From IMG/VR virus record IMGVR_UViG_3300029774_000001: a DNA stretch of 64,000 nt, one strand, 5' to 3'. Origin of the DNA: a virus. Both the position numbers and the translations under genes were made by a program. Of the stretch, positions 1,441 to 61,442 are shown one piece after another; positions within the stretch are counted from its first letter, which is position 1, and the number at the start of each line of letters is the position of its first letter. The notes below the pieces were generated by a model. It did no database searches. It worked only from the letters and a program-made list of their open reading frames with translations, and was not told where the DNA came from.

Positions 1441-2001
1441 ATGAAATTATTATATACAGTAAGTTCCGGATATATGGCAGAACAGCAGAATGTTTCTTAT
1501 TCGTTGGGTGGCTTTGCATCTTCCACGACAATACCTAACGACATGTTCGGTAATTTGTTTGATGAATTGAGTGTAAACACGATAAGAAATGCGAGAAACG
1601 AATACCGGGCTATAGTGCTGCACAATGACAGCCAGGAGGTGGCAAAAGGGGTGAAGATATGGTTCGAGAATCCGGAAACAAATGTGTGTTCGTTTAAGGT
1701 AGGTGCCGTGGGAATGATGGAAGGTGCAGACGGAAGCCGATATATGGGCAGTGCACCTAATATATATAGCAGACCCTATACAGTCCAGTTTTATGAGGCT
1801 ACAGAGGAAAACCCGGTGTCTATCGGGGATATGCAGCCAGACCAGATGATAGGTATATGGGTGGAAAGGAGTATAGATAAAGAAAAGGCTTTGGAAGAGT
1901 ATAACAACGTGGCTGAGAGGGATTTAACAACCGAAACGAGATATAAGCCTATTCAGAAGGAAACACAAGAAATGTTAAATATGCAATTTTATTGGGAATA
2001 A
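1441..2001 (+). CDS. hypothetical protein, probable virion structural protein
   Basis: Track ORF 1390..2001. The start is moved to ATG 1441, which follows 'aggaggagaaa' and lies just after the stop of the upstream ORF. Confidence 0.55.
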   Translation: MKLLYTVSSGYMAEQQNVSYSLGGFASSTTIPNDMFGNLFDELSVNTIRNARNEYRAIVLHNDSQEVAKGVKIWFENPETNVCSFKVGAVGMMEGADGSRYMGSAPNIYSRPYTVQFYEATEENPVSIGDMQPDQMIGIWVERSIDKEKALEEYNNVAERDLTTETRYKPIQKETQEMLNMQFYWE

Positions 2002-2036
2002 GCTATTGCGTATGTCATAAACAAATATTATCTTTG
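2001..2036 (+). promoter_or_regulatory. promoter cassette copy 1 (partial: right palindrome arm plus -7 box)
   Basis: 'ttgcgtatgtc' at 2006..2016, then 12 nt, then TAtcTTTG at 2029..2036. The spacing is the same as in the seven full copies. A downstream hairpin aagggag/ctccctt lies around 2050-2072. Confidence 0.55.
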
Positions 2037-2110
2037 TGGTGTGATTGATAAGGGAGTGTTAAGCCTCCCTTTCTTAATCGGGTTAGACATAAACAAATAT
2101 TATCTCGAAT

Positions 2111-8026: not shown

Positions 8027-8143
8027 ATGATGTTAAAACAGAGACAATTTAGACATAAGCACTTGCGTATCTCATAACATAATCTTATCTTTGCATTGTG
8101 AGATTAAGAGATGAAAAGTCAAACAAATAAAAAAGATAAGGTT
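8027..8143 (+). promoter_or_regulatory. promoter/operator/leader cassette copy 2
   Basis: 'atgatgttaaaac' box; palindrome 'gacataagcacttgcgtatctc' at 8052..8073; 12-nt spacer; -7 box TAtcTTTG at 8086..8093; leader 'gtcaaacaaataaaa' at 8118..8132; ATG at 8144. Confidence 0.65.
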
Positions 8144-8308: not shown

Positions 8309-8334
8309 CAATAACAATTTGTTTTCTTCATATT

Positions 8335-8362
8335 ATAGGGCTATGTTTGTAGCCCTATTTTT
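8335..8362 (+). terminator. rho-independent terminator overlapping a -7 box
   Basis: Stem atagggcta (8335..8343) / tagccctat (8350..8358), loop tgtttg, then a tttt run. The same bases contain TAtgTTTG at 8342..8349, with TTTG at 8318..8321 lying 20 nt upstream. Confidence 0.6.
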
Positions 8363-8376
8363 AAATCTGAAATAAA

Positions 8377-9831
8377 ATGGCTCAAAAGTTGTCTGCCGGA
8401 TTCATGGCAGAATTATTCAAGCTTGTGTATATGGATTTGAATATCACCAGGATGGTGGTAAATAATCTGACTTATCAGTTAATACCCAAAGAGTGGCCCG
8501 GGTTCAAATTCTTGCTAAAAGAGGCAACAGAAGTATTAAAGGAAAAAGATAAGGTTCCTTCTTTGGGCGTGGTGTCCCAAAAATACGCTGATAGTGATTT
8601 TGTGATTGAAGCGATAGATGCTGTGCAGTCAGCCGCCAAAGTAGACAAGGAAATCATTATAGACCAGTTGGAAGCGTACATTAAAGATGTGGAATTCCAG
8701 CTACTTTCTAAAAAAGTACATGATTTGTACGAAGAAGGAAAGAAAGAAGATGCTATACGGGTAAATGCGGAAGAGAGCCAAAGAATTTTATCCCTATCAT
8801 TAAGGCATGAGGCAGGCGGTTTTCAGAAAGTGTTCTCTGATTTTGACAAACGAATGAAGAGGAGACGGGAAGAAGAAGAGGGGGAGGTTCCATCACGCGT
8901 AATGTTCGGACTTGATAAGATAGACCAGATTTCAGAAGGCGGTGCCACAATGGAAGATACCGTGTTATGGATAATGCGTTCGGGTGTCGGTAAGTCTACT
9001 GTATTGAGATATCACGGTATGCAGGCAGCTTTTGACGGACACCCGGTCTTGCATATACAGTTGGAGGGCGGTGCGCGTGCGTGTCTGGAAAGATACGACC
9101 AGTTTTGGACCGGGCAAAAATACGGGAACATCAGAAAAGGTGTCATAGATGACAAGTTAGCCGAGAAAATAGAAAAGGCTTTTGAAAACATGAAATCCTA
9201 TTCCAAGGACATAGATGTTTATTCTTTTGAAAAATTCGGGCAGGCTACTATGGTGGATATCCGTAACGTGATAGTTTCCTATTACAAGAAAAACGGTTAT
9301 TATCCGCATGTATTGATATTGGATTCGTTAGACCTTGTGGCAACAGGAACAAATAGAGTTGTAGACAATAACCCTACATTCAAAAAAGAAAAATTACAGA
9401 CATGTGCACAACTTTTGAAAAATTTATGTGTAGAGTTTAAAATGGTGGGATTTACGGCAGCACAAGCCGGAAATGTGCCGTTGGAAATATGGGACAATTC
9501 GGACAAAGTGATAGACAGAAGCTATACGGAAGGGGACAGGACACTTGTAAAGCCGTTTTCCTTTGTGTTTACCGGGAACCGGACAAGAGAGGAAAAGAAA
9601 CAGAACATAATGCGTATCTATATGGATAAGGTACGCGATTATGATACGGTAAAAGATACCTTCCCTATTGTGACGGATTACGGCAGGGGACGTTTTTGTG
9701 ACAAGGCGCTGACAGCCGAATATTACGGAGGTGACAAGGGTTTCACGTCCTCTACTTCTGAAAAGAAGACAAGAAAGAAAAAGGACGAAGGCGGTGAAAA
9801 GCAAAATGATGTTAAAACAGAGGTGATTTAG
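8377..9831 (+). CDS. dnaB: DnaB/T4 gp41-like replicative DNA helicase
   Basis: Walker A 'MRSGVGKSTVL' and Walker B-like 'VLILDSLD', with a ~190-aa N-terminal domain before the RecA-like core. The gene lies just upstream of the primase. Confidence 0.8.
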   Translation: MAQKLSAGFMAELFKLVYMDLNITRMVVNNLTYQLIPKEWPGFKFLLKEATEVLKEKDKVPSLGVVSQKYADSDFVIEAIDAVQSAAKVDKEIIIDQLEAYIKDVEFQLLSKKVHDLYEEGKKEDAIRVNAEESQRILSLSLRHEAGGFQKVFSDFDKRMKRRREEEEGEVPSRVMFGLDKIDQISEGGATMEDTVLWIMRSGVGKSTVLRYHGMQAAFDGHPVLHIQLEGGARACLERYDQFWTGQKYGNIRKGVIDDKLAEKIEKAFENMKSYSKDIDVYSFEKFGQATMVDIRNVIVSYYKKNGYYPHVLILDSLDLVATGTNRVVDNNPTFKKEKLQTCAQLLKNLCVEFKMVGFTAAQAGNVPLEIWDNSDKVIDRSYTEGDRTLVKPFSFVFTGNRTREEKKQNIMRIYMDKVRDYDTVKDTFPIVTDYGRGRFCDKALTAEYYGGDKGFTSSTSEKKTRKKKDEGGEKQNDVKTEVI

Positions 9832-9893
9832 ACATAAGCACTTGCGTATGTCATAACATAATCTTATCTTTGTAGTGTCTTCTTAAGGGAGGC
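9806..9893 (+). promoter_or_regulatory. promoter/operator cassette copy 3 (overlaps the helicase 3' end)
   Basis: 'aatgatgttaaaacagaggtgatttag' encodes the last helicase codons. Palindrome at 9831..9852; -7 box TAtcTTTG at 9865..9872; then 'gtcttcttaagggaggc', shared with copy 8. Confidence 0.6.
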
Positions 9894-11292: not shown

Positions 11293-11350
11293 TATTGATT
11301 TTTTGCCATTTATCCTAATTTTTGTTAGATTTGAAGTCAAAAATAAGGAT

Positions 11351-11853: not shown

Positions 11854-11886
11854 TTTGTTTATCTCAAAATTAAATTGTTATATTTG
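11854..11886 (+). promoter_or_regulatory. Bacteroidota-type promoter (-33 TTTG / -7 TAtaTTTG)
   Basis: TTTG at 11854..11857 and TAtaTTTG at 11879..11886, 21-nt spacing, 23 nt upstream of ATG 11910. Confidence 0.55.
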
Positions 11887-13019: not shown

Positions 13020-13379
13020 ATGGAAGTTTCTTTGTTGACTTTGAGAAATGTGGGACGGAAGCTTGGAATGCAGAACGTTTCCGGATTTAAGAAAGAAGAC
13101 CTTTTGCAGCAGGTTGTCGAAAGACTGGAAGCAAAAGGAAAGACGATTGAAGAATATGCAAAGGAAGTTTCGATAAATACCCAAAAGGGGTATGTCAAGA
13201 AAAAGTTTAACCTTTCACCTAAAGGAAAAAACCCGTACAAGAAAGGAAGTATATCGTATAAGGTGTGGGAAGAACTCGCAAAGAATGACGGTCGTTCATT
13301 CAGCCGGATTGCAAAAGAACTGGGAACGCATTACAACGTTGTTTCCGTTTGTTGCAGGAACCATTTTAATAAATCATAA
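13020..13379 (+). CDS. hypothetical DNA-binding protein (SAP/Rho-N-like N-terminus, HTH-like C-terminus)
   Basis: Track ORF 12918..13379 with the start moved to ATG 13020. Contains 'FKKEDLLQQVVERLE' and 'SFSRIAKELGTHYNVVSV'. Confidence 0.45.
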   Translation: MEVSLLTLRNVGRKLGMQNVSGFKKEDLLQQVVERLEAKGKTIEEYAKEVSINTQKGYVKKKFNLSPKGKNPYKKGSISYKVWEELAKNDGRSFSRIAKELGTHYNVVSVCCRNHFNKS

Positions 13380-15058: not shown

Positions 15059-17134
15059 ATGATAGTAAAAAATATTGAAATAAAACGTCGGGCAAAGACC
15101 GTATTAGGGTCAATGCCAGATATAGATACCGACTTCCCAGGCAGAAGACGAGACGAAATAAAAGCTTACATGGAAGAACGGTTCGGTAAGGAGCAGGTTT
15201 GTTCGCTTGGCACCTATACTACTCTCCAGCTAAAAGAGGCAATATCGGACATGGCGCGTGCAGACGGCATACCAGTACAGTTATACAGATGGTTTACCGC
15301 TTGTATCGGAGATGACAAGGAAAAGACGATAGAGGAGTTTTTTAAGACTGTATGCGGAAAGGAAGACCTAAAGAAGTTCGTGAAGGAACATACAGAAACG
15401 TTCAACGACATGTTGGTAGTTCTTGGTTCACCTAAAAGCCAGTCAGTGCATGCGTGTGGAACCGTAGTGTTGCCAGATGGAAAAACATCCTACGAATGGA
15501 TGCCCGTACATACACAAAAAGGACTTGTAGTTACGGACTGGGAAGGTTCGGAAGTGGAAGAGGCAGGCTTCCTAAAGGAAGATGTTTTGGGTATCATACA
15601 GTTGGATAAGTTCGAGGAAATGTTACGCTTGATAAAGGAGAACCACGGAATAGATATTGACATATACAGCTTGCCTTTGGACGATAAGCAGGTATTCGAG
15701 TATGCAGGTAAAGGATGGCTGGGAGATGTTTTTCAGCTTGGTTCAGCAGGATTATCCGGATATTGCGTAAAAATGAAACCGGAAAACATAAACGAACTGT
15801 CTGCATGTGTGGCTCTCTACAGACCTGGACCTATGGAAAACAATTTCCACAACGAATATATTTTGCGGAAGAACGGGGAAAAGGACTGGACAGAAGAAAT
15901 GCCTATAGGCGGTGAAGAAGTGGTGAAGAAAGATTTTGGACTACTTGTCTATCAAGAAAGTATAATGTTATTAGCCCAAAAACTTGCCGGATTTGATTCT
16001 GAAACAACAGACCTTTTGCGTAAATGTTTGGGGAAGAAGGATTTAAAGAAGATAAAACTTTATAAAGACAAGTTTATTACTAATTATGCAAAAAATTTTG
16101 CTTCTAAGGGTGTCACAAAGGAATACGCGGAAAATCTTTGGAACCAAATGGAAGAGTTTGCAAAATATTCGTTCAACAAATCTCATTCCGTATGCTATGG
16201 TATGACCGCTTATATATGCCTATGGCTTAAGGTACATTATCCTATTGAGTATTGGAGTGCTACATTCTCGTTTGCGAAAGATGAAAAGATACCTTATTAT
16301 GTAAACGAAATACAGCAGTCCGGTGAGATAAAGATACATCCAGTAGATATCAACAAGTCAGATATAAACATTGTGTCCGATTATCGTACAAACAGTATGT
16401 ATTGGGCATTCAACGCAGTAAAACAATGTGGGGAAAGAGCACAGGAACATATATCGGAGGAGAAAAAGAAGAACGGGCCTTTTTTCTCTTTGGAGGAATT
16501 TATAGACAGATGTGTAATTAAAGGCAGTCCGGTAAATAAATCTGTCATTGAGAATTTGATATTTGCAGGAGCGTTCGACGAATTGGAGAATATCCAGGAA
16601 CCTAAAGACCGTTTGGCGCTTATTGAGATGTACCGCGAGAACAAAAGGGTTAAGATATTGGAGGATAAGGATTTACTTACCAATATTATGAAAGTCCGCA
16701 AAGAACGCAATAATTGGTGGTGGCTGTTGCAGCAAAAAAGAACGTCCGGTTTTGCATTTTTTGATTATTACGATTTGGTAAATGAATATCATATGCCTAA
16801 ATTAGACGACGAAACGGAATTCCAGGATGTGTCGCAGATAAAATTTTGGGACATTAATTCAAAGAAAACCCGTCGTGCCGTGATAGGCGGTTATGTGATT
16901 GAGATAATAGAGAGGAAAAGCAAGAAGGGCATATTTGCCACTATAGTATTGGAAAGTAATTATGAGTTTATAAATGTAACTATTTTCCCAGAGTTGTTTG
17001 AAGAATACGGAGAGTTTTTAAGGGGTAGTAAAAAGAACATTTTGTTGGTTAACGGTGTGATTGTGTGGGATAAGTTCAGAGGAGAATATATTTTGCAGGC
17101 GAATGTTAATTCATTGTTTACAGTATTGACGTAA
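15059..17134 (+). CDS. dnaE: DNA polymerase III alpha (DnaE) C-terminal fragment: catalytic palm, fingers, HhH, OB
   Basis: After 16-18 extra residues come 'SMPDIDTDF', then 'ALYRPGPM' and 'FAKYSFNKSHSVCYG'. It is in a different frame from the N-fragment, with only 4 nt between the ORFs. Confidence 0.8.
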   Translation: MIVKNIEIKRRAKTVLGSMPDIDTDFPGRRRDEIKAYMEERFGKEQVCSLGTYTTLQLKEAISDMARADGIPVQLYRWFTACIGDDKEKTIEEFFKTVCGKEDLKKFVKEHTETFNDMLVVLGSPKSQSVHACGTVVLPDGKTSYEWMPVHTQKGLVVTDWEGSEVEEAGFLKEDVLGIIQLDKFEEMLRLIKENHGIDIDIYSLPLDDKQVFEYAGKGWLGDVFQLGSAGLSGYCVKMKPENINELSACVALYRPGPMENNFHNEYILRKNGEKDWTEEMPIGGEEVVKKDFGLLVYQESIMLLAQKLAGFDSETTDLLRKCLGKKDLKKIKLYKDKFITNYAKNFASKGVTKEYAENLWNQMEEFAKYSFNKSHSVCYGMTAYICLWLKVHYPIEYWSATFSFAKDEKIPYYVNEIQQSGEIKIHPVDINKSDINIVSDYRTNSMYWAFNAVKQCGERAQEHISEEKKKNGPFFSLEEFIDRCVIKGSPVNKSVIENLIFAGAFDELENIQEPKDRLALIEMYRENKRVKILEDKDLLTNIMKVRKERNNWWWLLQQKRTSGFAFFDYYDLVNEYHMPKLDDETEFQDVSQIKFWDINSKKTRRAVIGGYVIEIIERKSKKGIFATIVLESNYEFINVTIFPELFEEYGEFLRGSKKNILLVNGVIVWDKFRGEYILQANVNSLFTVLT

Positions 17135-25044: not shown

Positions 25045-25158
25045 TATGTTAAAACAGTGTTAAAATGGCATAAGCAGTTGCGTATCTCATAACATAATCT
25101 TATCTTTGCATTGTGAGATTAAGAGATGATAAGTCAAACAAATAAAAAAGATAAGGTT
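25045..25158 (+). promoter_or_regulatory. promoter/operator/leader cassette copy 4
   Basis: Begins at the nucleotide after the upstream stop. Contains 'tatgttaaaacagtgttaaaa'; palindrome at 25067..25088; -7 box TAtcTTTG at 25101..25108; leader 'gtcaaacaaataaaa' at 25133..25147. Confidence 0.65.
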
Positions 25159-30903: not shown

Positions 30904-32351
30904 AATGGAGTGACAGACAATTAGCCATTTTCGACGCATACGAAAATACACGGAAAAACATTGCCATAGAAGCAACAGCAGGCAGCAGCAAGACAACTTG
31001 CATAGTGGAGTGTTGCAGAAGGACACCACCTAATAAAAAGGTTCTGTTTATGGCATTCAACAAAAGCATTGCGGAAGAATTGAGGGAACGTTTGCCGTCC
31101 CATATAGACGTCAACACCTTTCACTCTAAAGGTTTGCGCGTGCTGCTTTCCAATTTCCGTATAAAACCGAAAATCAACGAGAATAAATGCTTTGTTATCG
31201 GGAAGAAAATTCTGGACACAAAGGATATGGACGTGAAGCAGCAGATTCGATACCTATTCGAGATTCAAATAATATGGAACTACATAAGGGTCAACCTTAT
31301 TACGGATTACGAGAAGGAAATACCGGGTATCTGTATTGAAAAGAATATCGAATTCCAGGAACGTATGGTAGGGGACATGGAACAAATTAGAAATGCCTGG
31401 CACAAGGAAATGAAGAAGATAAATTCAGTAAAAGAAATTAACATTGATTTTACTGATATGCTTTATTTCCCTTACCAACTACTTGATAGTGAGGATTTCC
31501 CTAAATATGATATTGTTACCTTGGACGAACAACAAGATGCGAATACCTTACAAAAAGAGCTTGCTTTACGCTATATAAAGAAAAGCGGTCGATTTGTAGT
31601 TGTTGGTGATTCCAGGCAATGTATATACGGTTTCCAGGGGAGTTCTTTAGAGGTTTTCAAGTCCTTCCAATCTTATCCCAACACCATAGTATTACCGTTG
31701 GATATTACATACAGATGCGGCAAGAACATAGTCGAAGAAGCTCGAAAAGTTTTTAACAACGGGATTGTTGCTGCATCTAATGCGATAGACGGTATTGTAA
31801 GAAAAGGAGAGTTTGATGAAGCGGAAAACGGGGATTTTATTCTATGCCGGAACAACCTACCTTTGACAACTGTCTTTCTCTATTTGTTAGAAATGGGAAA
31901 GAAAGCGACAATAAAAGGTAAGGATTACGGTGATGCACTTGTGGCGTTGGTGGATAAGATAAAACATATTGAAGACTTGGACACGATGTGCGAGAAGAAA
32001 ATTTCGGAACTCAAAGAACGGGGTTTTACTGATATCCAGGCAAAAAATAACCCTTCCTATGTAACCCTTCTTGAAAAGTGTACTATATTGAAAATGCTTT
32101 ACAAGAACTGGGGAGACATGAAGAAGCTGGAAGACAATATAAAGGAGATATATAAGGACGATACGGAAGGTATCGTATTATCCACTATCCACAAGTCTAA
32201 AGGACTGGAAGCAGACCGTGTTTTCTTGCTGAACAAGAGTTTGATACCCAGCAAGTATGCGAACACGGAAGAAGCATTATATAATGAAAAATGTTTATTG
32301 TTTGTGGCCATAACAAGAGCAAGAAAGGAGCTTGTATATTGCAATGTTTAA
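30900..32351 (+). CDS. UvrD/Rep/PcrA-like superfamily 1 helicase
   Basis: 'QLAIFDAY', Walker A 'ATAGSSKTTCIVE', 'VTLDEQQD', 'GDSRQCIYGFQG', 'TIHKSKGLEADRVFLL', and 'LLFVAITRARKEL'. Confidence 0.85.
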   Translation: MKWSDRQLAIFDAYENTRKNIAIEATAGSSKTTCIVECCRRTPPNKKVLFMAFNKSIAEELRERLPSHIDVNTFHSKGLRVLLSNFRIKPKINENKCFVIGKKILDTKDMDVKQQIRYLFEIQIIWNYIRVNLITDYEKEIPGICIEKNIEFQERMVGDMEQIRNAWHKEMKKINSVKEINIDFTDMLYFPYQLLDSEDFPKYDIVTLDEQQDANTLQKELALRYIKKSGRFVVVGDSRQCIYGFQGSSLEVFKSFQSYPNTIVLPLDITYRCGKNIVEEARKVFNNGIVAASNAIDGIVRKGEFDEAENGDFILCRNNLPLTTVFLYLLEMGKKATIKGKDYGDALVALVDKIKHIEDLDTMCEKKISELKERGFTDIQAKNNPSYVTLLEKCTILKMLYKNWGDMKKLEDNIKEIYKDDTEGIVLSTIHKSKGLEADRVFLLNKSLIPSKYANTEEALYNEKCLLFVAITRARKELVYCNV

Positions 32352-32562
32352 CGATGAACCTAAGAAAACCGTATATACGGAAATAGACCGTGAATTCAAG
32401 CGCATGAAACCGGGCACGGAATTTTGCCGGATTGAATTTATCTCAAAGATAAAGGATTTCCACCCCGGTTCCGTAAGAAGTGGAATAGACCACTTCCTAT
32501 TAAAGAAAATGAGTAAAGGAGAAGTAAAAAGAATTGACAAAGGTAAATACTTGAAGTTATGA
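32344..32562 (+). CDS. hypothetical protein
   Basis: Track ORF 32332..32562. The ATG at 32344 is an equally possible start. Confidence 0.5.
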   Translation: MFNDEPKKTVYTEIDREFKRMKPGTEFCRIEFISKIKDFHPGSVRSGIDHFLLKKMSKGEVKRIDKGKYLKL

Positions 32563-33322: not shown

Positions 33323-33433
33323 TATGTTAATTATATGTTAAAACGACATAAGCAGTTGCGTATGTCATAACATAATCTTATCTTTGTGGTGTGATAAGGA
33401 AAACGATAAGTCAAACAACAAAAAGATAAGATT
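33322..33433 (+). promoter_or_regulatory. promoter/operator/leader cassette copy 5
   Basis: Starts at the upstream stop codon. Contains 'tgatatgttaattatatgttaaaac'; palindrome at 33345..33366; -7 box TAtcTTTG at 33379..33386; leader 'gtcaaacaacaaaaa' at 33410..33424. Confidence 0.65.
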
Positions 33434-34680: not shown

Positions 34681-34784
34681 ATCAACAATCAGTGAAAATG
34701 TGGAACCGGAGTTTTCATTCGTTGAACAGGAAAAGGAAGAAGTTTTGGTTTCGTGTACATGGTATTGATTTGGTGAAATAACTA

Positions 34785-34815
34785 TTGTTTATTTCCCTAT
34801 TAAAACCTACCTTTG
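34785..34815 (+). promoter_or_regulatory. Bacteroidota-type promoter (-33 TTG / -7 TAccTTTG)
   Basis: TTG at 34785..34787 and TAccTTTG at 34808..34815, 20-nt spacing, 18 nt upstream of ATG 34834. Confidence 0.55.
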
Positions 34816-36471: not shown

Positions 36472-36530
36472 AATCAAACGAAAAACTTTATGTTCATTTT
36501 TTGAGTATTAGTAGTTAATATCTAATTGAC

Positions 36531-36564
36531 AGCCAGCAGTTTGTGATAAATAGCTGGCTTTTAT
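36531..36564 (+). terminator. rho-independent terminator candidate
   Basis: Stem agccagc (36531..36537) / gctggct (36553..36559) followed by tttta. Confidence 0.45.
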
Positions 36565-36576
36565 TATATCCTTTTA

Positions 36577-36685
36577 TATGTTAATTATATGTTAAAAGCA
36601 CATAAGCACTTGCTTATGTCTAAATAAGGTCTTATATTTGCAATGTGATAAGAAAACGAAGTCAAACAAATAAAAACAAAAGATT
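36577..36685 (+). promoter_or_regulatory. promoter/operator/leader cassette copy 6
   Basis: 'tatatgttaattatatgttaaaa'; the best palindrome, 'acataagca ct tgcttatgt', within 36599..36620; -7 box TAtaTTTG at 36633..36640; leader 'gtcaaacaaataaaa' at 36661..36675. Confidence 0.65.
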
Positions 36686-36946
36686 ATGGCAAGCCCCAAA
36701 GTAAGACTGGAAGGAAAGAAAATCGCAGAAAAGGTGATGGAGTTTATGGACGAATATTCATTTGACCCTATCTATAAGGAGATAGGGAAGAACGGGGACG
36801 ACACCTATATCAGCGAGATACTGCGCTGCTTCCCTACAAGAAGAATAATAAACGATTTGGACGAACGCGGAGAACTCCATGAAGCATACAAGGAATATGT
36901 AGACATGAACGGAGTAACTCTCGTAAAGGACATAGCAAGAGAATGA
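36686..36946 (+). CDS. hypothetical protein
   Basis: 86-aa ORF directly after the cassette leader. Confidence 0.55.
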   Translation: MASPKVRLEGKKIAEKVMEFMDEYSFDPIYKEIGKNGDDTYISEILRCFPTRRIINDLDERGELHEAYKEYVDMNGVTLVKDIARE

Positions 36947-37090
36947 CAAACAAGGAAAAGCTCGAACTCGTATCGGAACTTTTCAAGATACCTTACCTGG
37001 CAAGTCCGGAAGAATACGGGGAAGCGATAGCGAAGGCAGCAAGGGAACAATATTACAGATAATCAATAACCAGCAAAAAAGCAGAACAAA

Positions 37091-41007: not shown

Positions 41008-41118
41008 TATGTTAATCTTATGTTAAAACGACATAAGCACTTGCGTATGTCTGATTAAGTACCTATATTTGCAATGTGATAAGGAAACAAGGTCAAACAA
41101 ATTAAAAGAAATAAGGTT
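41008..41118 (+). promoter_or_regulatory. promoter/operator/leader cassette copy 7
   Basis: 'ttatgttaatcttatgttaaaac'; palindrome at 41030..41051; -7 box TAtaTTTG at 41064..41071; leader 'gtcaaacaaattaaa' at 41092..41106. Confidence 0.65.
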
Positions 41119-43542: not shown

Positions 43543-43656
43543 ATATGTTAAAATAGTGTTAAAATGACATACGCAGTTGCTTATGTCCAAATAAGTCCTT
43601 ATATTTGCAATGTCTTCTTAAGGGAGGCGGTTAATTAAGTCAAACAAATAAAGATT
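43543..43656 (+). promoter_or_regulatory. promoter/operator/leader cassette copy 8
   Basis: 'ttatatgttaaaatagtgttaaaa'; palindrome 'gacatacgcagttgcttatgtc' at 43566..43587; -7 box TAtaTTTG at 43600..43607; 'gtcttcttaagggaggc'; leader 'gtcaaacaaataaag' at 43639..43653. Confidence 0.65.
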
Positions 43657-44508: not shown

Positions 44509-44733
44509 ATGAATGCAGGTATCATATTTTTAACTATCATTATTTTTATCGTTCATCTTATGCTGAGTGCCGAGGTAGGTTCTACGGCAGAAAGGATGAA
44601 CCGAAGTTTCGGAGTGTGGATGCTTATGGCACTTATCATTTCCCCGTTTATCGCAGCCATCTTTGTTCACTGCCTGGGGACTATTCCGGTTCCCGAAAAG
44701 AAGGAGGATTCAAAGAATGAAACCGAGAAGTAA
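44509..44733 (+). CDS. hypothetical two-pass membrane protein
   Basis: Two hydrophobic helices, 'AGIIFLTIIIFIVHLML' and 'VWMLMALIISPFIAAIFVHCLG'. Confidence 0.55.
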   Translation: MNAGIIFLTIIIFIVHLMLSAEVGSTAERMNRSFGVWMLMALIISPFIAAIFVHCLGTIPVPEKKEDSKNETEK

Positions 44734-45052
44734 TAGGTATATCTACTATTATGACAAGCGGTCTAAAAACAAGCCGTACCGGGTTATAATAGAAGTTGAG
44801 AAGAAGAAGTACAATATCGGTTATTTCCGAACCGTGGAAGAAGCGAGGACAGCCCGTGACGAGTTCATCCGGAATCATTTTTCCGTCTCCATAAGCTGGC
44901 AACGGTTACAGGAAATGAATGTGATTGTGGATAAGATTGCCGAACTTTCGGAAATACTGTCTTCCTATAGGGATATTTCTACGAATGAGGTTTGCCGGAA
45001 AATCGGGAATATCAAGCGGAACGCGGTTTCCATAAAGAAAATTATAGTATAA
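44717..45052 (+). CDS. AP2-like DNA-binding domain protein
   Basis: Track ORF 44663..45052 with ATG 44717 preferred. 'YRVIIEVEKKKYNIGYFRTVEEARTARDEF' fits the AP2 beta-sheet/helix pattern (x-a-x-I...lG-x-F-x-t-x-eeA-x-x-A). Confidence 0.55.
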   Translation: MKPRSNRYIYYYDKRSKNKPYRVIIEVEKKKYNIGYFRTVEEARTARDEFIRNHFSVSISWQRLQEMNVIVDKIAELSEILSSYRDISTNEVCRKIGNIKRNAVSIKKIIV

Positions 45053-45129
45053 ATATACACTCAATTTGTATAATTATTCATTTTTGTTTTGTAGTATGAG
45101 AACCTGGGTTTAGCGAAACCCGACAGACT

Positions 45130-45158
45130 GGGACGTTGTGAAACGTCCCTTTTCTTTT
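45130..45158. terminator. bidirectional terminator between convergent genes
   Basis: Stem gggacgt (45130..45136) / acgtccc (45143..45149) followed by ttttctttt. It lies between the + strand gene ending at 45052 and the - strand gene ending at 45178. Confidence 0.6.
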
Positions 45159-45177
45159 CTAAATCTTGACAACCGAG

Positions 45178-45633
45178 TTAATAATACTTGAAGAATGACA
45201 AAAAACCATAATCTACCAGTCCTTTTTCTACTGCATTCGCTTCTTGTTCAAACACGATTGCATGGTAACAGTCATGGTTTATAGCCTTGATTCTCTTAAT
45301 CCATTTCTTTATACCGCCACTGAAACCAGGGTGATACTTGATTAAGGCTCCTATTACACGTACAAACCATTCCAGGGCGTAATACAGATAGAACGTCAAC
45401 GGGATAAGGAGAAGTAGCCAGGGGCACGAGAAAACGCCTGCAAGACCGCTAAAAAGCACGGTGCCCGGTATCATTAATGATTTCCATTGATAGGAATGCG
45501 TTTCTTCATGTTTTAGGAATTCTTCGTCATAATACTCTTTCGTTTTCTTGCAAAGCAACCAGCAAAAAATTAGGATTGCGGAAAAGGTCGGAATGATAAT
45601 TTTCGCAATTTTCGATTCATAAACTACTTTCAT
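45178..45633 (-). CDS. membrane protein with HExxH motif (putative zinc metalloprotease)
   Basis: The only convincing minus-strand gene. 151 aa with about 3 hydrophobic helices, 'LKHEETHSYQW' (HExxH), and a downstream 'VFEQEA' as a possible third ligand. Confidence 0.5.
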   Translation of the reverse strand: MKVVYESKIAKIIIPTFSAILIFCWLLCKKTKEYYDEEFLKHEETHSYQWKSLMIPGTVLFSGLAGVFSCPWLLLLIPLTFYLYYALEWFVRVIGALIKYHPGFSGGIKKWIKRIKAINHDCYHAIVFEQEANAVEKGLVDYGFLSFFKYY

Positions 45634-45820
45634 ATTTTACAATTTTTAAGATTAAACACGTGTAAAGGTAGGCTTTTTCGAGGAAATTTCTGTCAATATT
45701 TATTACTATTTATAACTATCTGGAAATCAACACTTTGACATTTTACCATAAGGGTATTATCTAACCCCTAAAGGGGTACGTAGTTCCCTTTCTTCTTTTA
45801 CCCTTACGGGTATATTAATA

Positions 45821-45990
45821 GGAGGAAGAACTGCAATATAGCAATAGGGGGTTTGGGGGAGGAAGGGGAAAGAGTGAAAAATGGGGAAGGGGGATAAAGT
45901 GAGATATGGAAAGTGTTAACGGAAGTAAAAAAGAAAGGGGAGACGAAGCGAAAGAAAGAAGACGAAAACAAGAAGGGATTTTGGGAAAAA
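45821..45990 (+). repeat. polypurine (G/A-rich) tract
   Basis: ~170 nt, almost entirely purine on the + strand (ggaggaagaa...gggggaggaaggggaaagag...aaagaaagaagacgaaaacaagaaggg), ending next to GGCGCGCC at 45991..45998. Confidence 0.7.
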
Positions 45991-46022
45991 GGCGCGCCCG
46001 GCAAAAATTTTCTCGAAAAAAT

Positions 46023-46053
46023 TTTGTGGATTGAAAAATAATCCCTATGTTTG
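46023..46053 (+). promoter_or_regulatory. Bacteroidota-type promoter (-33 TTTG / -7 TAtgTTTG)
   Basis: TTTG at 46023..46026 and TAtgTTTG at 46046..46053, 19-nt spacing. It would give a ~200-nt leader for the gene starting at 46266. Confidence 0.5.
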
Positions 46054-46119
46054 CAGTGCTTAAACAAATGGCGGCTCAGTTCTGAAAAGAGCTGGGAACC
46101 GCAAAAGAAAAGGGGTTAT

Positions 46120-46262
46120 CTGTAGATTACGCTTTTACAAATACCGCTTTTAAAAATTTCCCCTTTTCTTTTTGTTTTGTAAGCAGGTGTTTGTAGGCGT
46201 TAATATCCTTGAGCAAGATATTTGTAAAAATGGAAATTTTGTAAAAGAAGCGTAATCTATAG
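46120..46262. repeat. long-range inverted repeat plus TTTGTAAAA iteron-like motifs
   Basis: Arm 1 'ctgtagattacgcttttacaa' (46120..46140) is complementary to arm 2 'ttgtaaaagaagcgtaatctatag' (46239..46262), with one G-U pair and a 3-nt bulge. TTTGTAAAA occurs at 46221..46229 and 46238..46246. Its reverse complement occurs at 46133..46141 and (8 of 9 nt) at 45635..45642. Confidence 0.65.
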
Positions 46263-46265
46263 AAA

Positions 46266-50557: not shown

Positions 50558-52060
50558 ATGTTACGGTTATTGTTTACAACAGAGGACAATGTTCACCAAA
50601 TGACCGTCGTAACCGACGGAATCGACGGTCAGATGAAGGTTTTCGTTACAGAAAGCCTCTATGGTGACGTGGAATATTATAAGGGGCTGGGTATCGTGAT
50701 TGAACCCGGACACACCTATAATATCGGACAGTTCAAGGAATGGGCGTTTAAGGCGCTTGTTAAGCTTATCTCATATCCGGAAGGATTCGGAGAAGAAGGC
50801 GCGGTATTGTCGGACGTGCAGGAAGTTGTGGAATACGTATTGGAGACTAAAGAACCTACACTCAATTTCCCTGCAAAGGGAGGTGATGATATGTGCGTAG
50901 TGACGTCTTCAAAGCAGACTTTCAAGAATGGACAACCAGTAGGACATCCGGAAGGCGTACCAGTGGAATTCTCAATATCTGGGGCAGGATTCAAGGTTGA
51001 CGGTGGAGGACAAGTAACGGTTGACGAGAACCCCAACAACACGACAAGAAAAGCGGTAGTGACGGTTAAACAGAATGAAAGCGGAAAGACATTGCAGATT
51101 ACATGCAACCAGGCTGCATCTACTGTAACCTACGAATATGCGCTTACAGTAGACCCGACAGCGGTAACGTTCGACGGTGCAGGAGGTGAAAAGCTGGTTA
51201 CCGTGACTTCTACAAGAACAAAAGTTCTGAACGGGGTAAAACAGCAGGCAGAAAGCTATCCTACGGACATAGAGCTTGCAGGTGAGGGATTCAGCTATGA
51301 AGTGAGCGGAAACAACTACAATCTGAAAGCCGAGGAGAATACCGGGACCTCACAGAGAACAGGAAAGGCAACCATTTCACAGGAAGGCGGAAAGACCGTA
51401 CAGATGAACTTGACACAGAATGCGGCTACGGTGACGTATGACTATGCACTTACAGCCAACTCACAGACCATACAGTTTGTAGCGCTTGGAGAAACGAAGA
51501 GTTTACAAGTTGTTTCAACAAGACAGAAAAAAGTTAACGGTAAACCGTCTGGTGATGTCGAGAAGGTAGATACGACTGCACAAATTACCGGAACCGGATT
51601 TAGCGAGACTTCATCAGAAACCACCAATGGAGAGAATTATAGCATAGTGGCAGCAGAGAACAAGGCAGAAACAGCTAATAACGGTTCTATTACCATTACA
51701 CAGACTGGAAGTAACAAGACGGTAAAGGTTACGTTAACACAGCTTGCAGCGACAGTTACCTATGAATATACATTGACTACAGACCCGACAACACTTTCAT
51801 TTGCAGCAGCAGGAGAAACAAAGATATTCGGTGTTTCAAGCAAGAAGCAGAAGAAAGTGAATGGGAAGAATGACGGTTCACCTATGACGGTTGACTACAC
51901 TACTGTAGTGAGTGGTACGGGATTTACCAAGGGTTCTACTGAATATTCTGTAGTGGCGGATGCAAATACTGGCGCACAGCGTACCGGAACGGCAGTTGTT
52001 ACGGCAGTAGAAGGAGGAAAGAAAGCGACGGTAAACCTTACACAATTGGCTGGAGAATAA
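50558..52060 (+). CDS. virion decoration/adhesion-type protein with four tandem Ig-like (BACON/Big-like) repeats
   Basis: Track ORF 50525..52060 with ATG 50558 preferred. Four repeats of about 100-108 aa each end in 'v-x-v-x-L-T-Q-x-A-A' and start 'TVTY(E/D)YaLT'. Confidence 0.6.
   Translation: MLRLLFTTEDNVHQMTVVTDGIDGQMKVFVTESLYGDVEYYKGLGIVIEPGHTYNIGQFKEWAFKALVKLISYPEGFGEEGAVLSDVQEVVEYVLETKEPTLNFPAKGGDDMCVVTSSKQTFKNGQPVGHPEGVPVEFSISGAGFKVDGGGQVTVDENPNNTTRKAVVTVKQNESGKTLQITCNQAASTVTYEYALTVDPTAVTFDGAGGEKLVTVTSTRTKVLNGVKQQAESYPTDIELAGEGFSYEVSGNNYNLKAEENTGTSQRTGKATISQEGGKTVQMNLTQNAATVTYDYALTANSQTIQFVALGETKSLQVVSTRQKKVNGKPSGDVEKVDTTAQITGTGFSETSSETTNGENYSIVAAENKAETANNGSITITQTGSNKTVKVTLTQLAATVTYEYTLTTDPTTLSFAAAGETKIFGVSSKKQKKVNGKNDGSPMTVDYTTVVSGTGFTKGSTEYSVVADANTGAQRTGTAVVTAVEGGKKATVNLTQLAGE
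50855..52057 (+). repeat. four tandem coding repeats (~300-325 nt each)
   Basis: Repeat boundaries are near 50855, 51119, 51427 and 51751. Recurring peptide blocks are TVTYEYALT, SxRxKKVNGK and LTQxAA. Confidence 0.7.
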
Positions 52061-52072: not shown

Positions 52073-55000
52073 ATGGGAAAGAGAAAAGGAAAGATAATAC
52101 AAAAAGCGGAAAAGCCGGATTTGGTTGCAAGTCTTTCGAGTTTGTCCATTGAAGAGATAGACATGCTGCAAAAGGCTGCACCTATGGCATTCCAAAGCAA
52201 ATTGCAGGCTGCGTTAAACTCAAACGATGCAGGGGAGATAATGAAGGCTAATTTGTATCTGGGAGAAATCAATAGACAGCCTACAAAAATTCAGTCTGTT
52301 TTCTTTGACCCTAACGACATATCTGGTAACGGAAGAGGATTCAAGGATTCTAAAGGGGTTCTGTCCTTTTCCGTATTGCGCCGGATGGGGGACATTCATA
52401 TAGTGAAAAGTATCGTGTCTACACGCGTGGAGCAGATAATGAACTTTATGGACTTTTCGGAAGACGAGCAGAAGGAGGGTTTCACAATCAGAAAGAAGAA
52501 GAGCCTTTTTTCTACCGGGGATGAGAAATTGACAAACGAGGACAAGAAAAAGATTTCAAAGATAGTTGATTTCCTGGAAAAGGGAGGATGGACGGACAAA
52601 TGGGACAATGTGGACAGTTTGCAGGAATTTGTAAGTAAAATAATGTCGGATAGTCTTACATTAGACCAGTTGGCCTTTGAAATGGTCCGCAACAGAATGT
52701 GGGAATTGCAGAAGTTCCGCGCTGTGGATGCTTCTCTGATACGTTTTCTTGACAGCGTAGACCCCAGACAAAGGGAAGGTTTCGAGCAGTACAGATTCAA
52801 GGGGCATTTGCCGCGTTACTGCATGGTGTGGGATGAAATGATTCTTCATAACCCTATAACGAAGGAACCGATATTGTATTACCCATGGGAGCTTGGATTC
52901 GGTATCAGAAACAAGACATCTGATGTAAGAAGAAACGGGTATGGAGTATCGGAATTGGAAACGTTGGTGAATATCATAACCTGGATATTATGGGGCTTTT
53001 CTTATAATGCGAATTTCTTTTGCGTTTCACCGGAAACACTCGTTACGACGAATAAGGGTTTAAGAAGAATAAAGGATTTGGTAGGTACAGAATTTGAAGT
53101 TTTTGACGGTGTGGAATACTGTAAGGCATCCGCATATAAGACAAGAATAGATGATTTGTACGAAACAAGACTGTATAACGGCTTAAAGATAAGAACAAGC
53201 CGCGAACACAGATTCTTGACTATAACGGATAAAGATAAATCTCCTAAATGGAAAGAACAAAAGGATTTGACTACGGATGATTATTGTTTAGTAGATATAA
53301 ATACTTATGGAGATTTTCATGAGGAAGATTATTTCATAGGAAGAGAATATTTTAGAGAATTTACTAACCCAACAAAGGAAGCTGTTCTTAAAAAAGAAAA
53401 AACTTTTACCCCTTCTTTGGAGATGGTGAAAGATAAGTATTTTTGGGAAATGATTGGTTTTGCTTTAGGGGATGGTACCTGGTTGGAACATATACTTGAA
53501 ATTTTCCCACACCATACAAAAGATAAAAAACTTTTTGGTGATTTCTCTAAAGTGTTGGATAAATACGGAATAAATTATCGTATAAAGAAAGGCAATCCTT
53601 CCACACAAAGAAGTGACGGGGAATATGGATATCCGTATATATTCATATATGACACATGCTTTATCGACTGGCTTATAAGCATAGGATTCGGATATACAAG
53701 AGATAAGAAGATACCCGTTTCCGTATTTAACTTGCCGGAAGAGTTGAGATGCGCGTTTTTGAGAGGATTGTTTTCGGCAGACGGACATACTTCTGCAAAT
53801 ATAATGGGATATAAAACTCCTACTATATGTTGTGTGAATAATGATTTGAGGCAAGATATATTACAATTATTATTAAGCGTTGGGGTTGCTGCGAGAGAGT
53901 GCAATAGAAGTAAAAGCAGATATAATGACCCAGTAACACTTGTTATTCAAGATGTAATGTCTTTTGTTGATAAAATAGGTTATTTGCAAGACTATAAAAA
54001 TGAAGGTATATCAAGAGGAGAAAGGACAAAGGGCAAATGGGATTTGGTACCTAATTCTTTGGCTTTGGATATACTGGAAAACAACAGGGGAGGTGACATA
54101 TCTTTCTCGAAGCATCATGTGAAAAAAGGTGGAAGGATAAGCAGAGGTAAGCTTATAAGGGTTCTGACAGAGGCGGGATGTAGCGTGCCGGAAATATTGA
54201 ATTATCATTTCTATAAGGTAATGGACAATTCCAGACTTGTAAAGGAGAAGGAACAACTTTATGATATAGAGGTATTCAATGACAAGCATATATTTCTTGC
54301 CAATTATACGGCAGTCCATAACTGCCAGGGTTCACAGCCTAAAGGGTTTATTAACATAAAGAACCCTAATATATCAAACAGTACATTGCAGGAGTTTAGG
54401 CAGGCATGGACGCAAACGATGGCGGGGGTTAGCAACAGTCACCGCACACCCGTTATAAACGGTATAGATTTGGAATGGGTTGATTTACAGAAACTTAGCA
54501 ATCGTGATATGGAATTCAACGAGTGGATAAAATTCCTTATCATAATGACATGTTCCGTATACCGTATAGACCCATCCGAACTTGGATTTAATTTCAAGGA
54601 AAGTCAGCAGATATTCGGACAGGACGGACAGCGCGAAAGATTGAAGCACAGCCGGGAAAAAGGATTGAAGCCTCTATTGATATTCTTGCAGGGTGTCATT
54701 ACAAAGTACATTGTGAGCGAGTTGGACGAAAACTACGAGTTTGCATTTACCGGAATAGAGGTGGAAGACGAAGAAGCACAGGTAAAACTGGATTCTGAAA
54801 AACTGAGTAGCGGCATGGTTGCCATGCAGGATATATTCAAGAAGTATAACGGAAGGGATTTTGACCCGGAAAAGGACATCATTCTTAACCAGGTGTACCA
54901 GGGGATGAAACAGGCAGAAGAACAGAATAAAATGTTCGGAGCTTCACAGCCTGGACAGCAGCCGGAAGGTGTACCGGAAGACGAGGAAGACCCGTTCGCA

Positions 55001-55075
55001 CAATACAAATCGTTTAACGATAATCCTATAATGAAACCAGCAGTTGACTATTATTTAAAAAATCTTTACAAATAA
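52073..55075 (+). CDS. portal protein (tentative) interrupted by an intein
   Basis: 1000 aa from ATG 52073 (the track start at 52064 is TTG), or about 566 aa without the intein. It is the first large gene of a portal ... protease, scaffold, capsid series. The portal assignment rests on size and synteny only. Confidence 0.6.
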   Translation: MGKRKGKIIQKAEKPDLVASLSSLSIEEIDMLQKAAPMAFQSKLQAALNSNDAGEIMKANLYLGEINRQPTKIQSVFFDPNDISGNGRGFKDSKGVLSFSVLRRMGDIHIVKSIVSTRVEQIMNFMDFSEDEQKEGFTIRKKKSLFSTGDEKLTNEDKKKISKIVDFLEKGGWTDKWDNVDSLQEFVSKIMSDSLTLDQLAFEMVRNRMWELQKFRAVDASLIRFLDSVDPRQREGFEQYRFKGHLPRYCMVWDEMILHNPITKEPILYYPWELGFGIRNKTSDVRRNGYGVSELETLVNIITWILWGFSYNANFFCVSPETLVTTNKGLRRIKDLVGTEFEVFDGVEYCKASAYKTRIDDLYETRLYNGLKIRTSREHRFLTITDKDKSPKWKEQKDLTTDDYCLVDINTYGDFHEEDYFIGREYFREFTNPTKEAVLKKEKTFTPSLEMVKDKYFWEMIGFALGDGTWLEHILEIFPHHTKDKKLFGDFSKVLDKYGINYRIKKGNPSTQRSDGEYGYPYIFIYDTCFIDWLISIGFGYTRDKKIPVSVFNLPEELRCAFLRGLFSADGHTSANIMGYKTPTICCVNNDLRQDILQLLLSVGVAARECNRSKSRYNDPVTLVIQDVMSFVDKIGYLQDYKNEGISRGERTKGKWDLVPNSLALDILENNRGGDISFSKHHVKKGGRISRGKLIRVLTEAGCSVPEILNYHFYKVMDNSRLVKEKEQLYDIEVFNDKHIFLANYTAVHNCQGSQPKGFINIKNPNISNSTLQEFRQAWTQTMAGVSNSHRTPVINGIDLEWVDLQKLSNRDMEFNEWIKFLIIMTCSVYRIDPSELGFNFKESQQIFGQDGQRERLKHSREKGLKPLLIFLQGVITKYIVSELDENYEFAFTGIEVEDEEAQVKLDSEKLSSGMVAMQDIFKKYNGRDFDPEKDIILNQVYQGMKQAEEQNKMFGASQPGQQPEGVPEDEEDPFAQYKSFNDNPIMKPAVDYYLKNLYK
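53021..54322 (+). mobile_element. intein with LAGLIDADG homing-endonuclease domain (434 codons)
   Basis: N-junction 'NANFF|CVSPETLVTT' and C-junction 'ANYTAVHN|CQGSQ'. Block B 'TSREHRFL'. LAGLIDADG blocks 'WEMIGFALGDGTW' and 'AFLRGLFSADGHT'. In frame with the host ORF. Confidence 0.85.
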
Positions 55076-56012: not shown

Positions 56013-56044
56013 TTTGTTCAATTCTGAACAGTTTTGTATATTTG
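56013..56044 (+). promoter_or_regulatory. Bacteroidota-type promoter (-33 TTTG / -7 TAtaTTTG)
   Basis: TTTG at 56013..56016 and TAtaTTTG at 56037..56044, 20-nt spacing, 29 nt upstream of ATG 56074. Confidence 0.55.
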
Positions 56045-61410: not shown

Positions 61411-61442
61411 TTTGGCTATTTGCATAATAATTCATATTTTTG
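61411..61442 (+). promoter_or_regulatory. Bacteroidota-type promoter (-33 TTTG / -7 TAttTTTG)
   Basis: TTTG at 61411..61414 and TAttTTTG at 61435..61442, 20-nt spacing, upstream of the protease-scaffold-capsid genes. Confidence 0.5.

Follow-up and report, generated by a model that had tools for sequence, protein, structure and literature searches.

Why does one short inverted repeat recur around the -33 element of promoter after promoter in a gut phage, and what might read it? The question is raised by positions 36,599 to 36,620 of the window, by which we mean the whole 64-kb stretch (64,000 nucleotides; IMG/VR virus record IMGVR_UViG_3300029774_000001) of an uncultured ~105-kb human-gut Bacteroidota phage that was analysed here. 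An earlier note had described a 22-mer at eight loci of this stretch as a palindromic operator, and had proposed that a single dimeric regulator bound there replaces or occludes recognition of the -33 element. Our most economical reading is that the 22-mer is a clade-specific, dyad-symmetric operator laid on a strong promoter scaffold for the host RNA polymerase.

A 22-bp dyad centred on a -33-like TTG

The pattern GACATAAGCAnTTGCKTATGTC has exactly eight matches in the window when up to three mismatches are allowed, all of them on the + strand and at the positions that the earlier note had given, and no match in 100 dinucleotide-preserving shuffles. The gap between the 22-mer and the -7 box TAnnTTTG was claimed to be fixed, and it is 12 nt in all eight copies and in 136 of 136 unique contexts with a -7 box from related contigs (87-100% polymerase identity), every one of the related contigs examined having the dyad. 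The palindrome is also centred where the note had placed it, on a -33-like TTG(C), with a spacer of 20 nt between the central TTG and the TA of the -7 box in every copy. A search of the window for the isolated half-site ACATAMGCA outside the promoter cassettes described below found none. The eight copies are listed here with their complementary pairs, counted over the 11 possible pairs of the 22-mer and over the nine pairs of the arms.

Dyad copy 1, 1995..2016, + strand: GGAATAAGCTATTGCGTATGTC; 7/11 pairs, 5/9 in the arms
Dyad copy 2, 8052..8073, + strand: GACATAAGCACTTGCGTATCTC; 8/11 pairs, 7/9 in the arms
Dyad copy 3, 9831..9852, + strand: GACATAAGCACTTGCGTATGTC; 9/11 pairs, 8/9 in the arms
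Dyad copy 4, 25067..25088, + strand: GGCATAAGCAGTTGCGTATCTC; 7/11 pairs, 6/9 in the arms
Dyad copy 5, 33345..33366, + strand: GACATAAGCAGTTGCGTATGTC; 9/11 pairs, 8/9 in the arms
Dyad copy 6, 36599..36620, + strand: CACATAAGCACTTGCTTATGTC; 9/11 pairs, 9/9 in the perfect 9-bp arms ACATAAGCA / TGCTTATGT
Dyad copy 7, 41030..41051, + strand: GACATAAGCACTTGCGTATGTC; 9/11 pairs, 8/9 in the arms
Dyad copy 8, 43566..43587, + strand: GACATACGCAGTTGCTTATGTC; 9/11 pairs, 8/9 in the arms; central TTG kept, with the states of position 7 (A/C) and position 16 (G/T) swapped relative to most copies

Only in copy 6 are the 9-bp arms perfect, as had been reported for it, while the 9 to 10 of 11 pairs ascribed to the other copies was too high, our count being 7 to 9. 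Copy 1, which had been credited with a right arm only, does have a left arm, which is degenerate (GGAATAAGCT) and agrees with the consensus at 7 of 10 positions. Conservation does not extend to the outermost pair, G1-C22: among 95 unique relatives, position 1 is G in 54 and C in 37, and the actual dyad is ACATAMGCA-nT-TGCKTATGT, in which two 9-bp arms are separated by 2 bp. The centres of the half-sites are 11 bp apart, and therefore both arms lie on one face of the helix. A perfect inverted repeat scoring at least as well as that of copy 6 arose in 6 of 20000 mononucleotide shuffles of the 35-nt region (p = 3e-4), a p-value that rises to ~0.01 once the 42 lineage clusters examined are allowed for.

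Scans of IMG/VR and of metagenomes found the same cassettes in a human-gut clade of more than 100 contigs, up to ~108 kb long and from many gut samples. Among 95 unique cassettes, from which variation within the clade was assessed, the dyad is conserved to the same degree as the -7 box and the TGTTAAA boxes that lie upstream, while the flanking spacers vary. Dyad positions 4-6, 8-9, 13-15, 17-19 and 21-22 are at least 97% conserved, and the right arm together with TTGC is almost invariant. Positions 7 (A/C) and 16 (G/T) vary independently and are found in all four combinations; therefore, the half-site is ACATAMGCA, with no selection for base pairing. Changes in the arms are mostly one-sided within the clade, the only candidate for a double change (C3 to A together with G20 to T) occurring in a degenerate site of the type found at 34773.

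The clade is well separated from other phages. Searches of IMG/VR and of JGI/ENA metagenomes returned relatives with either 87-100% or at most 48% identity in the DnaE-type polymerase, and none between. Neither megablast of 20 kb of the window nor blastn of one cassette matched any of 50,697 GenBank phage records. The nearest named relatives by polymerase are the Cellulophaga phages phi13:1 and phiST (40% identity), and the closest GenBank record (MT835601, 50%) has no cassette.

Promoter cassettes and the scaffold beneath the dyad

Each 22-mer is embedded in a 75-nt cassette made of one or two TGTTAAA boxes, the dyad around the -33 TTGC, and TTATnTTTGCAnTGT. Alignment of the eight copies gives the order TGTTAAA box(es), 22-mer, 12-nt spacer, TAnnTTTG, GCAnTGT and leader, the leader being A-rich and partly conserved, with AGATAAGGTTATG as its last part. 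Cassettes 4-8 have two TGTTAAA boxes at an exact spacing of 11 nt, cassettes 1-3 have kept only the distal one, and 35 nt separate the proximal box from TTATnTTTG. The -7 box reads TATCTTTG or TATATTTG in all eight copies, which fits the -7 element TAnnTTTG, and the -33 element is C/G/A-TTG, matching three of the four positions of TTTG. All eight cassettes are intergenic and on the coding strand:

Cassette 1, 1973..2047, + strand: distal TGTTAAA box 1973-1979; dyad 1995-2016; -7 box TATCTTTG 2029-2036; start region GTGGTGTGA; first promoter of the early region, after late-type genes
Cassette 2, 8031..8104, + strand: TGTTAAA box 8031-8037; dyad 8052-8073; -7 box 8086-8093; drives an open reading frame (ORF) of 54 amino acids at 8144-8308
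Cassette 3, 9810..9883, + strand: TGTTAAA box 9810-9816, inside the 3' end of the DnaB-like gene; dyad 9831-9852; -7 box 9865-9872
Cassette 4, 25047..25119, + strand: TGTTAAA boxes 25047-25053 and 25058-25064; dyad 25067-25088; -7 box 25101-25108
Cassette 5, 33325..33397, + strand: TGTTAAA boxes 33325-33331 and 33336-33342; dyad 33345-33366; -7 box 33379-33386
Cassette 6, 36579..36651, + strand: TGTTAAA boxes 36579-36585 and 36590-36596; dyad 36599-36620; -7 box TATATTTG 36633-36640; just 5' of it, at ~36530-36565, a hairpin and T-run taken for a terminator by eye, no scan having been made
Cassette 7, 41010..41082, + strand: TGTTAAA boxes 41010-41016 and 41021-41027; dyad 41030-41051; -7 box 41064-41071
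Cassette 8, 43546..43618, + strand: TGTTAAA boxes 43546-43552 and 43557-43563; dyad 43566-43587; -7 box 43600-43607; last early unit, up to the terminator at 45130-45149
Possible ninth, degenerate site, 34773..34815, + strand: AT-rich, dyad-like GAAATAACTATTGTTTATTTC, 12 nt 5' of TACCTTTG, without TGTTAAA boxes; relatives read CAAATAAACTATTGCTTATTTC

The promoters of the Bacteroides sigma factor sigma-A (sigma-ABfr) have the consensus TTTG-N19-21-TAnnTTTG, with elements at -33 and -7 (PMC10620806). The cassettes share with these promoters the TAnnTTTG box (8/8), the TTG 20 nt upstream of it, and the intergenic position on the coding strand, and differ from them in having a C/G-TTG-C at -33 inside a 22-bp dyad and in the extra upstream TGTTAAA boxes. 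Bayley et al. (2000) and Vingadassalom et al. (2005) are credited with this -33/-7 consensus.

The likeness to the promoters of phage B124-14 extends over the whole cassette. The B124-14 copies read GTGTTAAA-N3-GTGTTAAAA, 13 nt, TTGC, 18 nt, TATATTTGCAaTGTCAAAAGGAAACAA, and their alignment with our cassettes is gap-free between the first TGTTAA box and the start region. TGTTAA-N5-TGTTAAA, 35 nt, TTATnTTTG, GCAnTGT and the A-rich leader are collinear in the two phages, the -33 element is sTTGC at equal spacing in both, and both carry several copies per genome ahead of transcription units. However, B124-14 has no 22-bp dyad, the equivalent positions being AT-rich and variable among its paralogues, and its 47-kb genome is unrelated to the ~105-kb genome considered here. 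The strong constitutive phage promoter used for engineering Bacteroides is stated to come from B124-14 (PMC10746243), and P_BfP1E6, with its UP elements and -7 box, is described as strong and constitutive in uninfected B. thetaiotaomicron (bioRxiv 10.1101/2025.03.18.644028). The scaffold is probably read by host RNA polymerase and, because the B124-14-derived P_BfP1E6 is strong without phage factors, it probably needs no activator. P_BfP1E6 is said to be the synthetic-biology promoter of Whitaker, Shepherd and Sonnenburg, Cell 2017.

A scan of IMG/VR that did not depend on the dyad (TGTTAA-N5-TGTTAAA-N33-37-TTATNTTTG) found the scaffold in many unrelated contigs, with at least 34 lineage clusters outside this clade. 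In those 34 lineages the positions of both arms are AT-rich and carry at most 1 bit, whereas in this clade they are nearly invariant. Therefore, both arms are specific to the clade and are not generic contacts of RNA polymerase. An inverted repeat in the 35-nt region was found at p < 0.05 in five of the 42 lineage clusters, where about two are expected, and four other lineages (of ~41) have dyads unrelated to this one at p <= 0.01:

L243 dyad: GGTATGA-N15-TCATACC
L251 dyad: TTACATAA-N8-TTATGTAA
L263 dyad: AAAGTTTAA-N1-TTAAACTTT
L255/L295 dyad: TCCGCAA-N7-TTGCGGA

The L255 dyad occurs in two promoters (~8048 and 10150, - strand), with conserved arms and a variable spacer. T-runs follow some of these other dyads, such as those of L255 and L243, which may also serve as terminators. 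A sister clade (L364-L412), consisting of ~108-kb human-gut contigs with 40-43% polymerase identity, has promoters that read gaatTTCGGGGAA, 4-6 nt, TCTTTG, ataATTCGAA and then TTACCTTTG, conserved across copies and genomes. Many lineages therefore have a sequence of their own around -33, and a dyad, though it recurs, is what only a minority of them have there.

Within the window, a scan for (T)TTG-N18-22-TAnnTTTG yields a promoter map with two classes: the eight promoters with the dyad, which are confined to 2-45 kb and mostly precede small orphan ORFs, and plain TTTG sites without it. Intergenic full-TTTG sites that lack the dyad lie at 11302, 11854, 46023, 56013 and 61411. The dyad therefore does not govern all transcription of the region, with five to six intergenic promoters of the window lacking it; it marks a subset of promoters, not every one. 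The plain sites used for comparison are:

Plain promoter, 11854..11886, + strand: TTTG-N21-TATATTTG, then GCAGTGT; no dyad and no TGTTAAA boxes; heads the MazG / DnaE-polymerase / RecA / SbcCD operon
Plain promoter, 46023..46053, + strand: TTTG-N19-TATGTTTG, then GCAGTG; no dyad; opens the late (structural) module, 3' of the terminator at 45130-45149
Plain intergenic promoter-like site of the late module, 56013..56044, + strand: no dyad
Plain intergenic promoter-like site of the late module, 61411..61442, + strand: no dyad

One further match to the consensus, at 8318-8349, sits in the loop of ATAGGGCTA-TGTTTG-TAGCCCTAT, ahead of a TTTTT run, and probably marks a terminator behind the 54-amino-acid gene, not a promoter of DnaB. 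The plain promoter at 46023-46053 is followed by a 213-nt leader with a hairpin before the first late gene.

The cassettes are also mosaics. Upstream box variants, the A/C and G/T alternatives within the dyad, three spacer modules (ATAACATAATC, TAAATAAGGTC and TGATTAAGTRCC) and several leader modules occur in many combinations, both among paralogues and at orthologous positions (cassettes 1-8; contigs L001-L189 and L239-L334), and this mosaicism implies frequent gene conversion. The 5' leaders of cassettes 2, 4, 5, 6 and 7 contain GATAAG two or three times (for example at 33393-33433), so that ~1.5 kb of cassette sequence holds nine copies against ~1 expected, and the B124-14 leaders are without it. 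We considered these repeats as extra half-sites and rejected them, GATAAG showing no genome-wide enrichment (55 observed against 41 expected). A second dyad, ATAAG/CTTAT beside the -7 box, was dismissed as an extra half-site as well: it is common to the B124-14 promoters, and is for that reason regarded as part of the scaffold.

What may bind the dyad

We assign a probability of roughly 0.4 to the proposal that the 22-mer is the operator for a phage-encoded dimer that occludes the -33 element and shuts off the early promoters together. In this scheme, a dimeric DNA-binding protein, most likely encoded by the phage and made early or in mid-infection, would recognise the two 9-bp half-sites ACATAMGCA. 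If the TA of the -7 box is taken as -12, the bound protein would cover about -46 to -25. Its inner contacts, GCA/TGC, would coincide with the -33 TTGC, and the left arm would replace the position that is AT-rich in other lineages and where the proximal UP subsite would lie. Because of this overlap at both ends, occupancy would exclude both sigma region 4 and the C-terminal domain of the RNA polymerase alpha subunit (alpha-CTD). The eight early/middle transcription units would then be shut off together, and the plain-TTTG promoters, that of the replication operon (11854) and those of the late module (46023, 56013 and 61411), would escape. Repression is favoured because a promoter of the B124-14 family is strong without phage factors and because the units behind the dyad look early.

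A gene for such a protein was sought with Pfam and PHROG in about 100 ORFs in all (84 ORFs at Pfam E <= 0.001, and 20 further ORF scans). The 25 Pfam families from the 84 ORFs include no Cro/CI, RHH, sigma, MotA or AsiA family, the further 20 scans gave no MotA or AsiA family, and the 25 of 32 PHROG families listed include no transcription regulator. One sub-threshold match to HTH_11 could not be assigned to any member ORF. Three small proteins were considered:

Candidate, 13020-13379, + strand: 119 amino acids, found in this clade only; N-terminal 40 residues Rho_N / HeH-like
Candidate, 44717-45052, + strand: 111 amino acids; part match to PHROG families annotated as HNH endonucleases (E = 9e-8)
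Candidate, 32344-32562, + strand: predicted stand-alone winged-helix protein of 72 amino acids, downstream of cassette 4

The first two are the candidates that the earlier note had put forward as small helix-turn-helix- or AP2-like proteins, and both are weak candidates. The protein at 13020-13379 has only sub-threshold matches, to Rho_N and HTH_38, and an AlphaFold 2 (AF2) model gives only the Rho_N-like N terminus; its C-terminal SFSRIAKELGTHYNVVSVCCRN looks like a helix-turn-helix by eye, and the C terminus could not be modelled. For 44717-45052, which has no Pfam match, we read the matched part as the DNA-binding module of HNH endonuclease families, the nuclease part being covered by no match. 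The third protein, 32344-32562, likewise has no Pfam match; its AF2 single-sequence model (pLDDT, the predicted local distance difference test score, of 82) has the topology H-S-H-H-wing, and its best Foldseek matches in the Protein Data Bank are DNA-binding domains of the GntR family (template modelling score 0.64, E 0.013), making it a candidate regulator at the level of fold only. These analyses gave no evidence tying any of the three to the dyad.

Two genes directly behind cassettes were also considered. The 54-amino-acid product of 8144-8308 was rejected as a dyad-specific protein, being present also in B124-14-like phages without the dyad: its homologues, 47% identical, lie in B124-14-like contigs of 46-47 kb (L246, L297, L298 and L312). 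Because these contigs have the same type of promoter, unrelated phage groups may exchange the promoter and this gene as one module. The first gene behind copy 6 is an orphan that encodes 125 amino acids in most relatives and is split by a frameshift here into 86 and 39 amino acids (36686-36946 and 36943-37062); with 425 clusters at 90% identity, it is unusually diverse.

Several findings weigh against an occluding repressor. The left arm is about three times more variable than the right, and copies 1 and 4 keep just 5-6 of 9 arm pairs, with these degenerate copies being themselves conserved. T12 is invariant and breaks the central symmetry, and therefore the conservation comes at least partly from directional promoter function. 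The boxes that flank -33 in the sister clade are strongly conserved yet non-palindromic, and therefore clade-specific conservation at -33 can arise without a dyad. The choice between repressor and activator is drawn solely from geometry, and the dyad centre, placed at -35.5 relative to a predicted start site, could be off by several base pairs. Finally, the scans of ~100 ORFs identified no classical repressor and no cognate DNA-binding protein. Thus the dimeric, -33-occluding regulator that the earlier note had envisaged is matched by the geometry, the conservation and the clade-specific arms, and not by a binding protein among those ORFs.

The same findings lead to a different proposal, that the block is simply an optimum for host RNA polymerase in this pairing of host and phage, contacted by sigma-A region 4 and alpha-CTD and read by no separate regulator, the partial palindrome being a by-product of similar preferences of alpha-CTD and sigma region 4 or the result of chance and gene conversion. 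A nearly invariant right arm and TTGC beside a drifting left arm, the symmetry broken by T12 in the direction expected for a -33 TTG, and the equally conserved, non-palindromic boxes of the sister clade all point this way, as do the swapping of segments between mosaic cassettes, which homogenises copies, and the strength of B124-14-type promoters without phage proteins. We hold this proposal to be doubtful. The positions concerned are unconstrained in the 34 other lineages that have the same scaffold and Bacteroidota hosts, different dyads have arisen there in independent lineages, and the perfect 9-bp inverted repeat has a p-value of 3e-4 in shuffles; moreover, the left arm contains G/C where an AT-rich stretch, expected to be better suited to UP-element function, would otherwise lie. 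If the protein on the dyad were instead a phage activator or sigma-appropriation factor that recruits or remodels host RNA polymerase, as happens at the T4 MotA box (-30) or with class II activators, the eight units would be middle genes and the plain TTTG promoters early ones. The two promoter classes are compatible with such a protein, as are the -35-type position of the motif, like that of the MotA box, and the sTTG of the dyad promoters where plain promoters have the consensus TTTG. We judge it unlikely, given that the sTTGC at -33 is shared by the promoters of B124-14, a phage named as the origin of a promoter with very high activity in the absence of phage factors, that the dyad units begin with many small orphan ORFs typical of early genes while the replication operon has a plain promoter, that MotA, AsiA and sigma domains are missing from the 25 Pfam families of the 84 ORFs, and that a dimer over about -46 to -25 would leave sigma region 4 no room unless it were displaced.

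It is also conceivable that a Bacteroides transcription factor binds the dyad and ties the early promoters to a host regulator, either for sensing host physiology or for silencing by the host. Such a factor would account for the lack of an evident repressor gene in the phage scans, and the geometry of the dyad suits many bacterial dimeric factors, but the available data make it very improbable. The pattern ACATAMGCANNTGCKTATGT was found at 48 loci, against ~35 expected by chance, in one genome from each of 185,579 species (596 Gb of bacteria and archaea), a weak test in that the pattern was exact and real operators often deviate from their consensus. Many of the matches are in Bradyrhizobium, the seven loci inspected are isolated palindromes with no phage cassette or Bacteroides promoter set, and the motif is absent from other scaffold-bearing Bacteroides phages. 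Hardly any weight is left for a role of the dyad as nucleic acid structure or in recombination, whether as a cruciform, as a hairpin (a terminator, a processing site or an N4-like hairpin promoter) or as a crossover point by which cassettes spread. Breakpoints of the mosaic cassettes do fall near the dyad, the dyads of L255 and L243 with their T-runs are terminator-like, and the site at 34773 keeps arm complementarity in two registers. However, the free energy of the single-stranded DNA is only -0.2 to -5.8 kcal/mol, with three of the eight copies folding no better than shuffles, no U/T tract follows the dyad on its 3' side, and most copies have an A-G mismatch at positions 7 and 16, with C-T found too and pairing-restoring changes not favoured. 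Separate terminators, each a hairpin and T-run recognised by eye, already lie 5' of cassettes 6 and 8. We therefore rejected the hairpin, terminator or cruciform on its weak folding, missing T tract and independent variation at positions 7 and 16.

Gene neighbourhood, significance and known systems

All long ORFs of the window are on the + strand, and scans for Rfam families and tRNAs in the window returned no match. The replication and recombination region encodes a DnaB-like helicase, a DnaE-type polymerase, RecA/UvsX, SbcCD, an NAD-dependent ligase and several helicases. The polymerase is split into two ORFs that lie 4 nt apart (13459-15054 and 15059-17134), and the match of the second ORF spans 2481-2898 nt in related contigs (L135-L137 and L147-L168) against 2073 nt here, which suggests that something, for instance an intein or mobile element, is inserted in the polymerase of some relatives. 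Early and late genes meet at 45053-46265. Besides the + strand terminator (45130-45149), this boundary has an ORF on the minus strand (45178-45633), the one ORF of notable size there, and an unusual stretch rich in purines at ~45830-45990. The structural module starts at ~46 kb, with portal, protease, holin and endolysin genes. The portal protein (52073-55075) has 1000 amino acids, with its portal homology split between residues 103-322 and 755-972 and a weak match of residues 449-606 to an anaerobic ribonucleotide reductase PHROG, and its middle may be an intein or an inserted domain. Three diverged repeats at 51077-51779, within the gene at 50558-52060, have a period of ~306-324 nt, with 62-71% identity over 73 nt; a structural gene with tandem protein domains is the probable explanation.

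We know of no characterised operator or regulator of gene-expression timing in Bacteroidota phages. Literature searches with sequence strings and keywords found nothing relevant on timing operators in these phages, and full-text searches with cassette and dyad strings found no paper. A multi-copy operator over a phage core promoter is a familiar kind of element, in a phage group that has been little studied and in which, to our knowledge, none has been described. Should the 22-mer prove to be an operator, eight early units would form one regulon in this abundant human-gut phage clade, and the 22-mer itself offers a concrete 22-bp bait for the regulator. The natural operator and its protein would then be useful as a repressible strong promoter for Bacteroides engineering, because B124-14, given as the origin of P_BfP1E6, has a matching scaffold. 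If the 22-mer is an intrinsic promoter element instead, it still refines the rules of promoter strength in the phylum. A broader conjecture, which we put forward as speculative, is that Bacteroidota phages share one portable strong-promoter scaffold at whose -33 position each lineage plugs in its own dyad operator, with its own orphan regulator. Were this true, these phages would hold a natural library of orthogonal repressor-operator pairs on the promoter family that is used to engineer Bacteroides, and would supply the first circuit for early-gene shut-off to be described from a phage of this phylum.

Multi-copy operators that serve one regulator are known from P1 (C1), mycobacteriophage L5 (gp71 operator and 'stoperator' sites), RK2 (KorA/KorB) and the lambdoid phages (cI/Cro). 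As in those systems, a short conserved site occurs here at many promoters throughout the genome and overlaps the core promoter, and as in the KorA, KorB and cI/Cro operators it is dyad-symmetric, with half-sites one helical turn apart. In contrast, the P1 and L5 sites are asymmetric, the centre of the present site lies exactly on the -33 element, with the same offset throughout the eight copies, its regulator is only hypothesised, and the window contains no lysogeny module. In the middle promoters of T4, a MotA box at -30 replaces the -35 element and acts with AsiA. The resemblance lies in a phage-specific motif that occupies a -35-type position beside a host-type downstream element in a subset of promoters. 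The MotA box differs in being 9 bp long, asymmetric and read by a monomer, whereas the site described here is symmetric and retains a usable -33 TTG, and neither MotA nor AsiA is among the 25 Pfam families from the 84 ORFs. PeSL ('promoter-early stem-loop') elements are reportedly mobile promoter cassettes of T4-type phages, described by Arbiol et al. in 2010. Like them, the present cassettes are near-identical early promoters dispersed over the early region, whose copies show traces of recombination with one another; PeSLs add a stem-loop downstream, while the palindrome here lies upstream of the start site and folds weakly.

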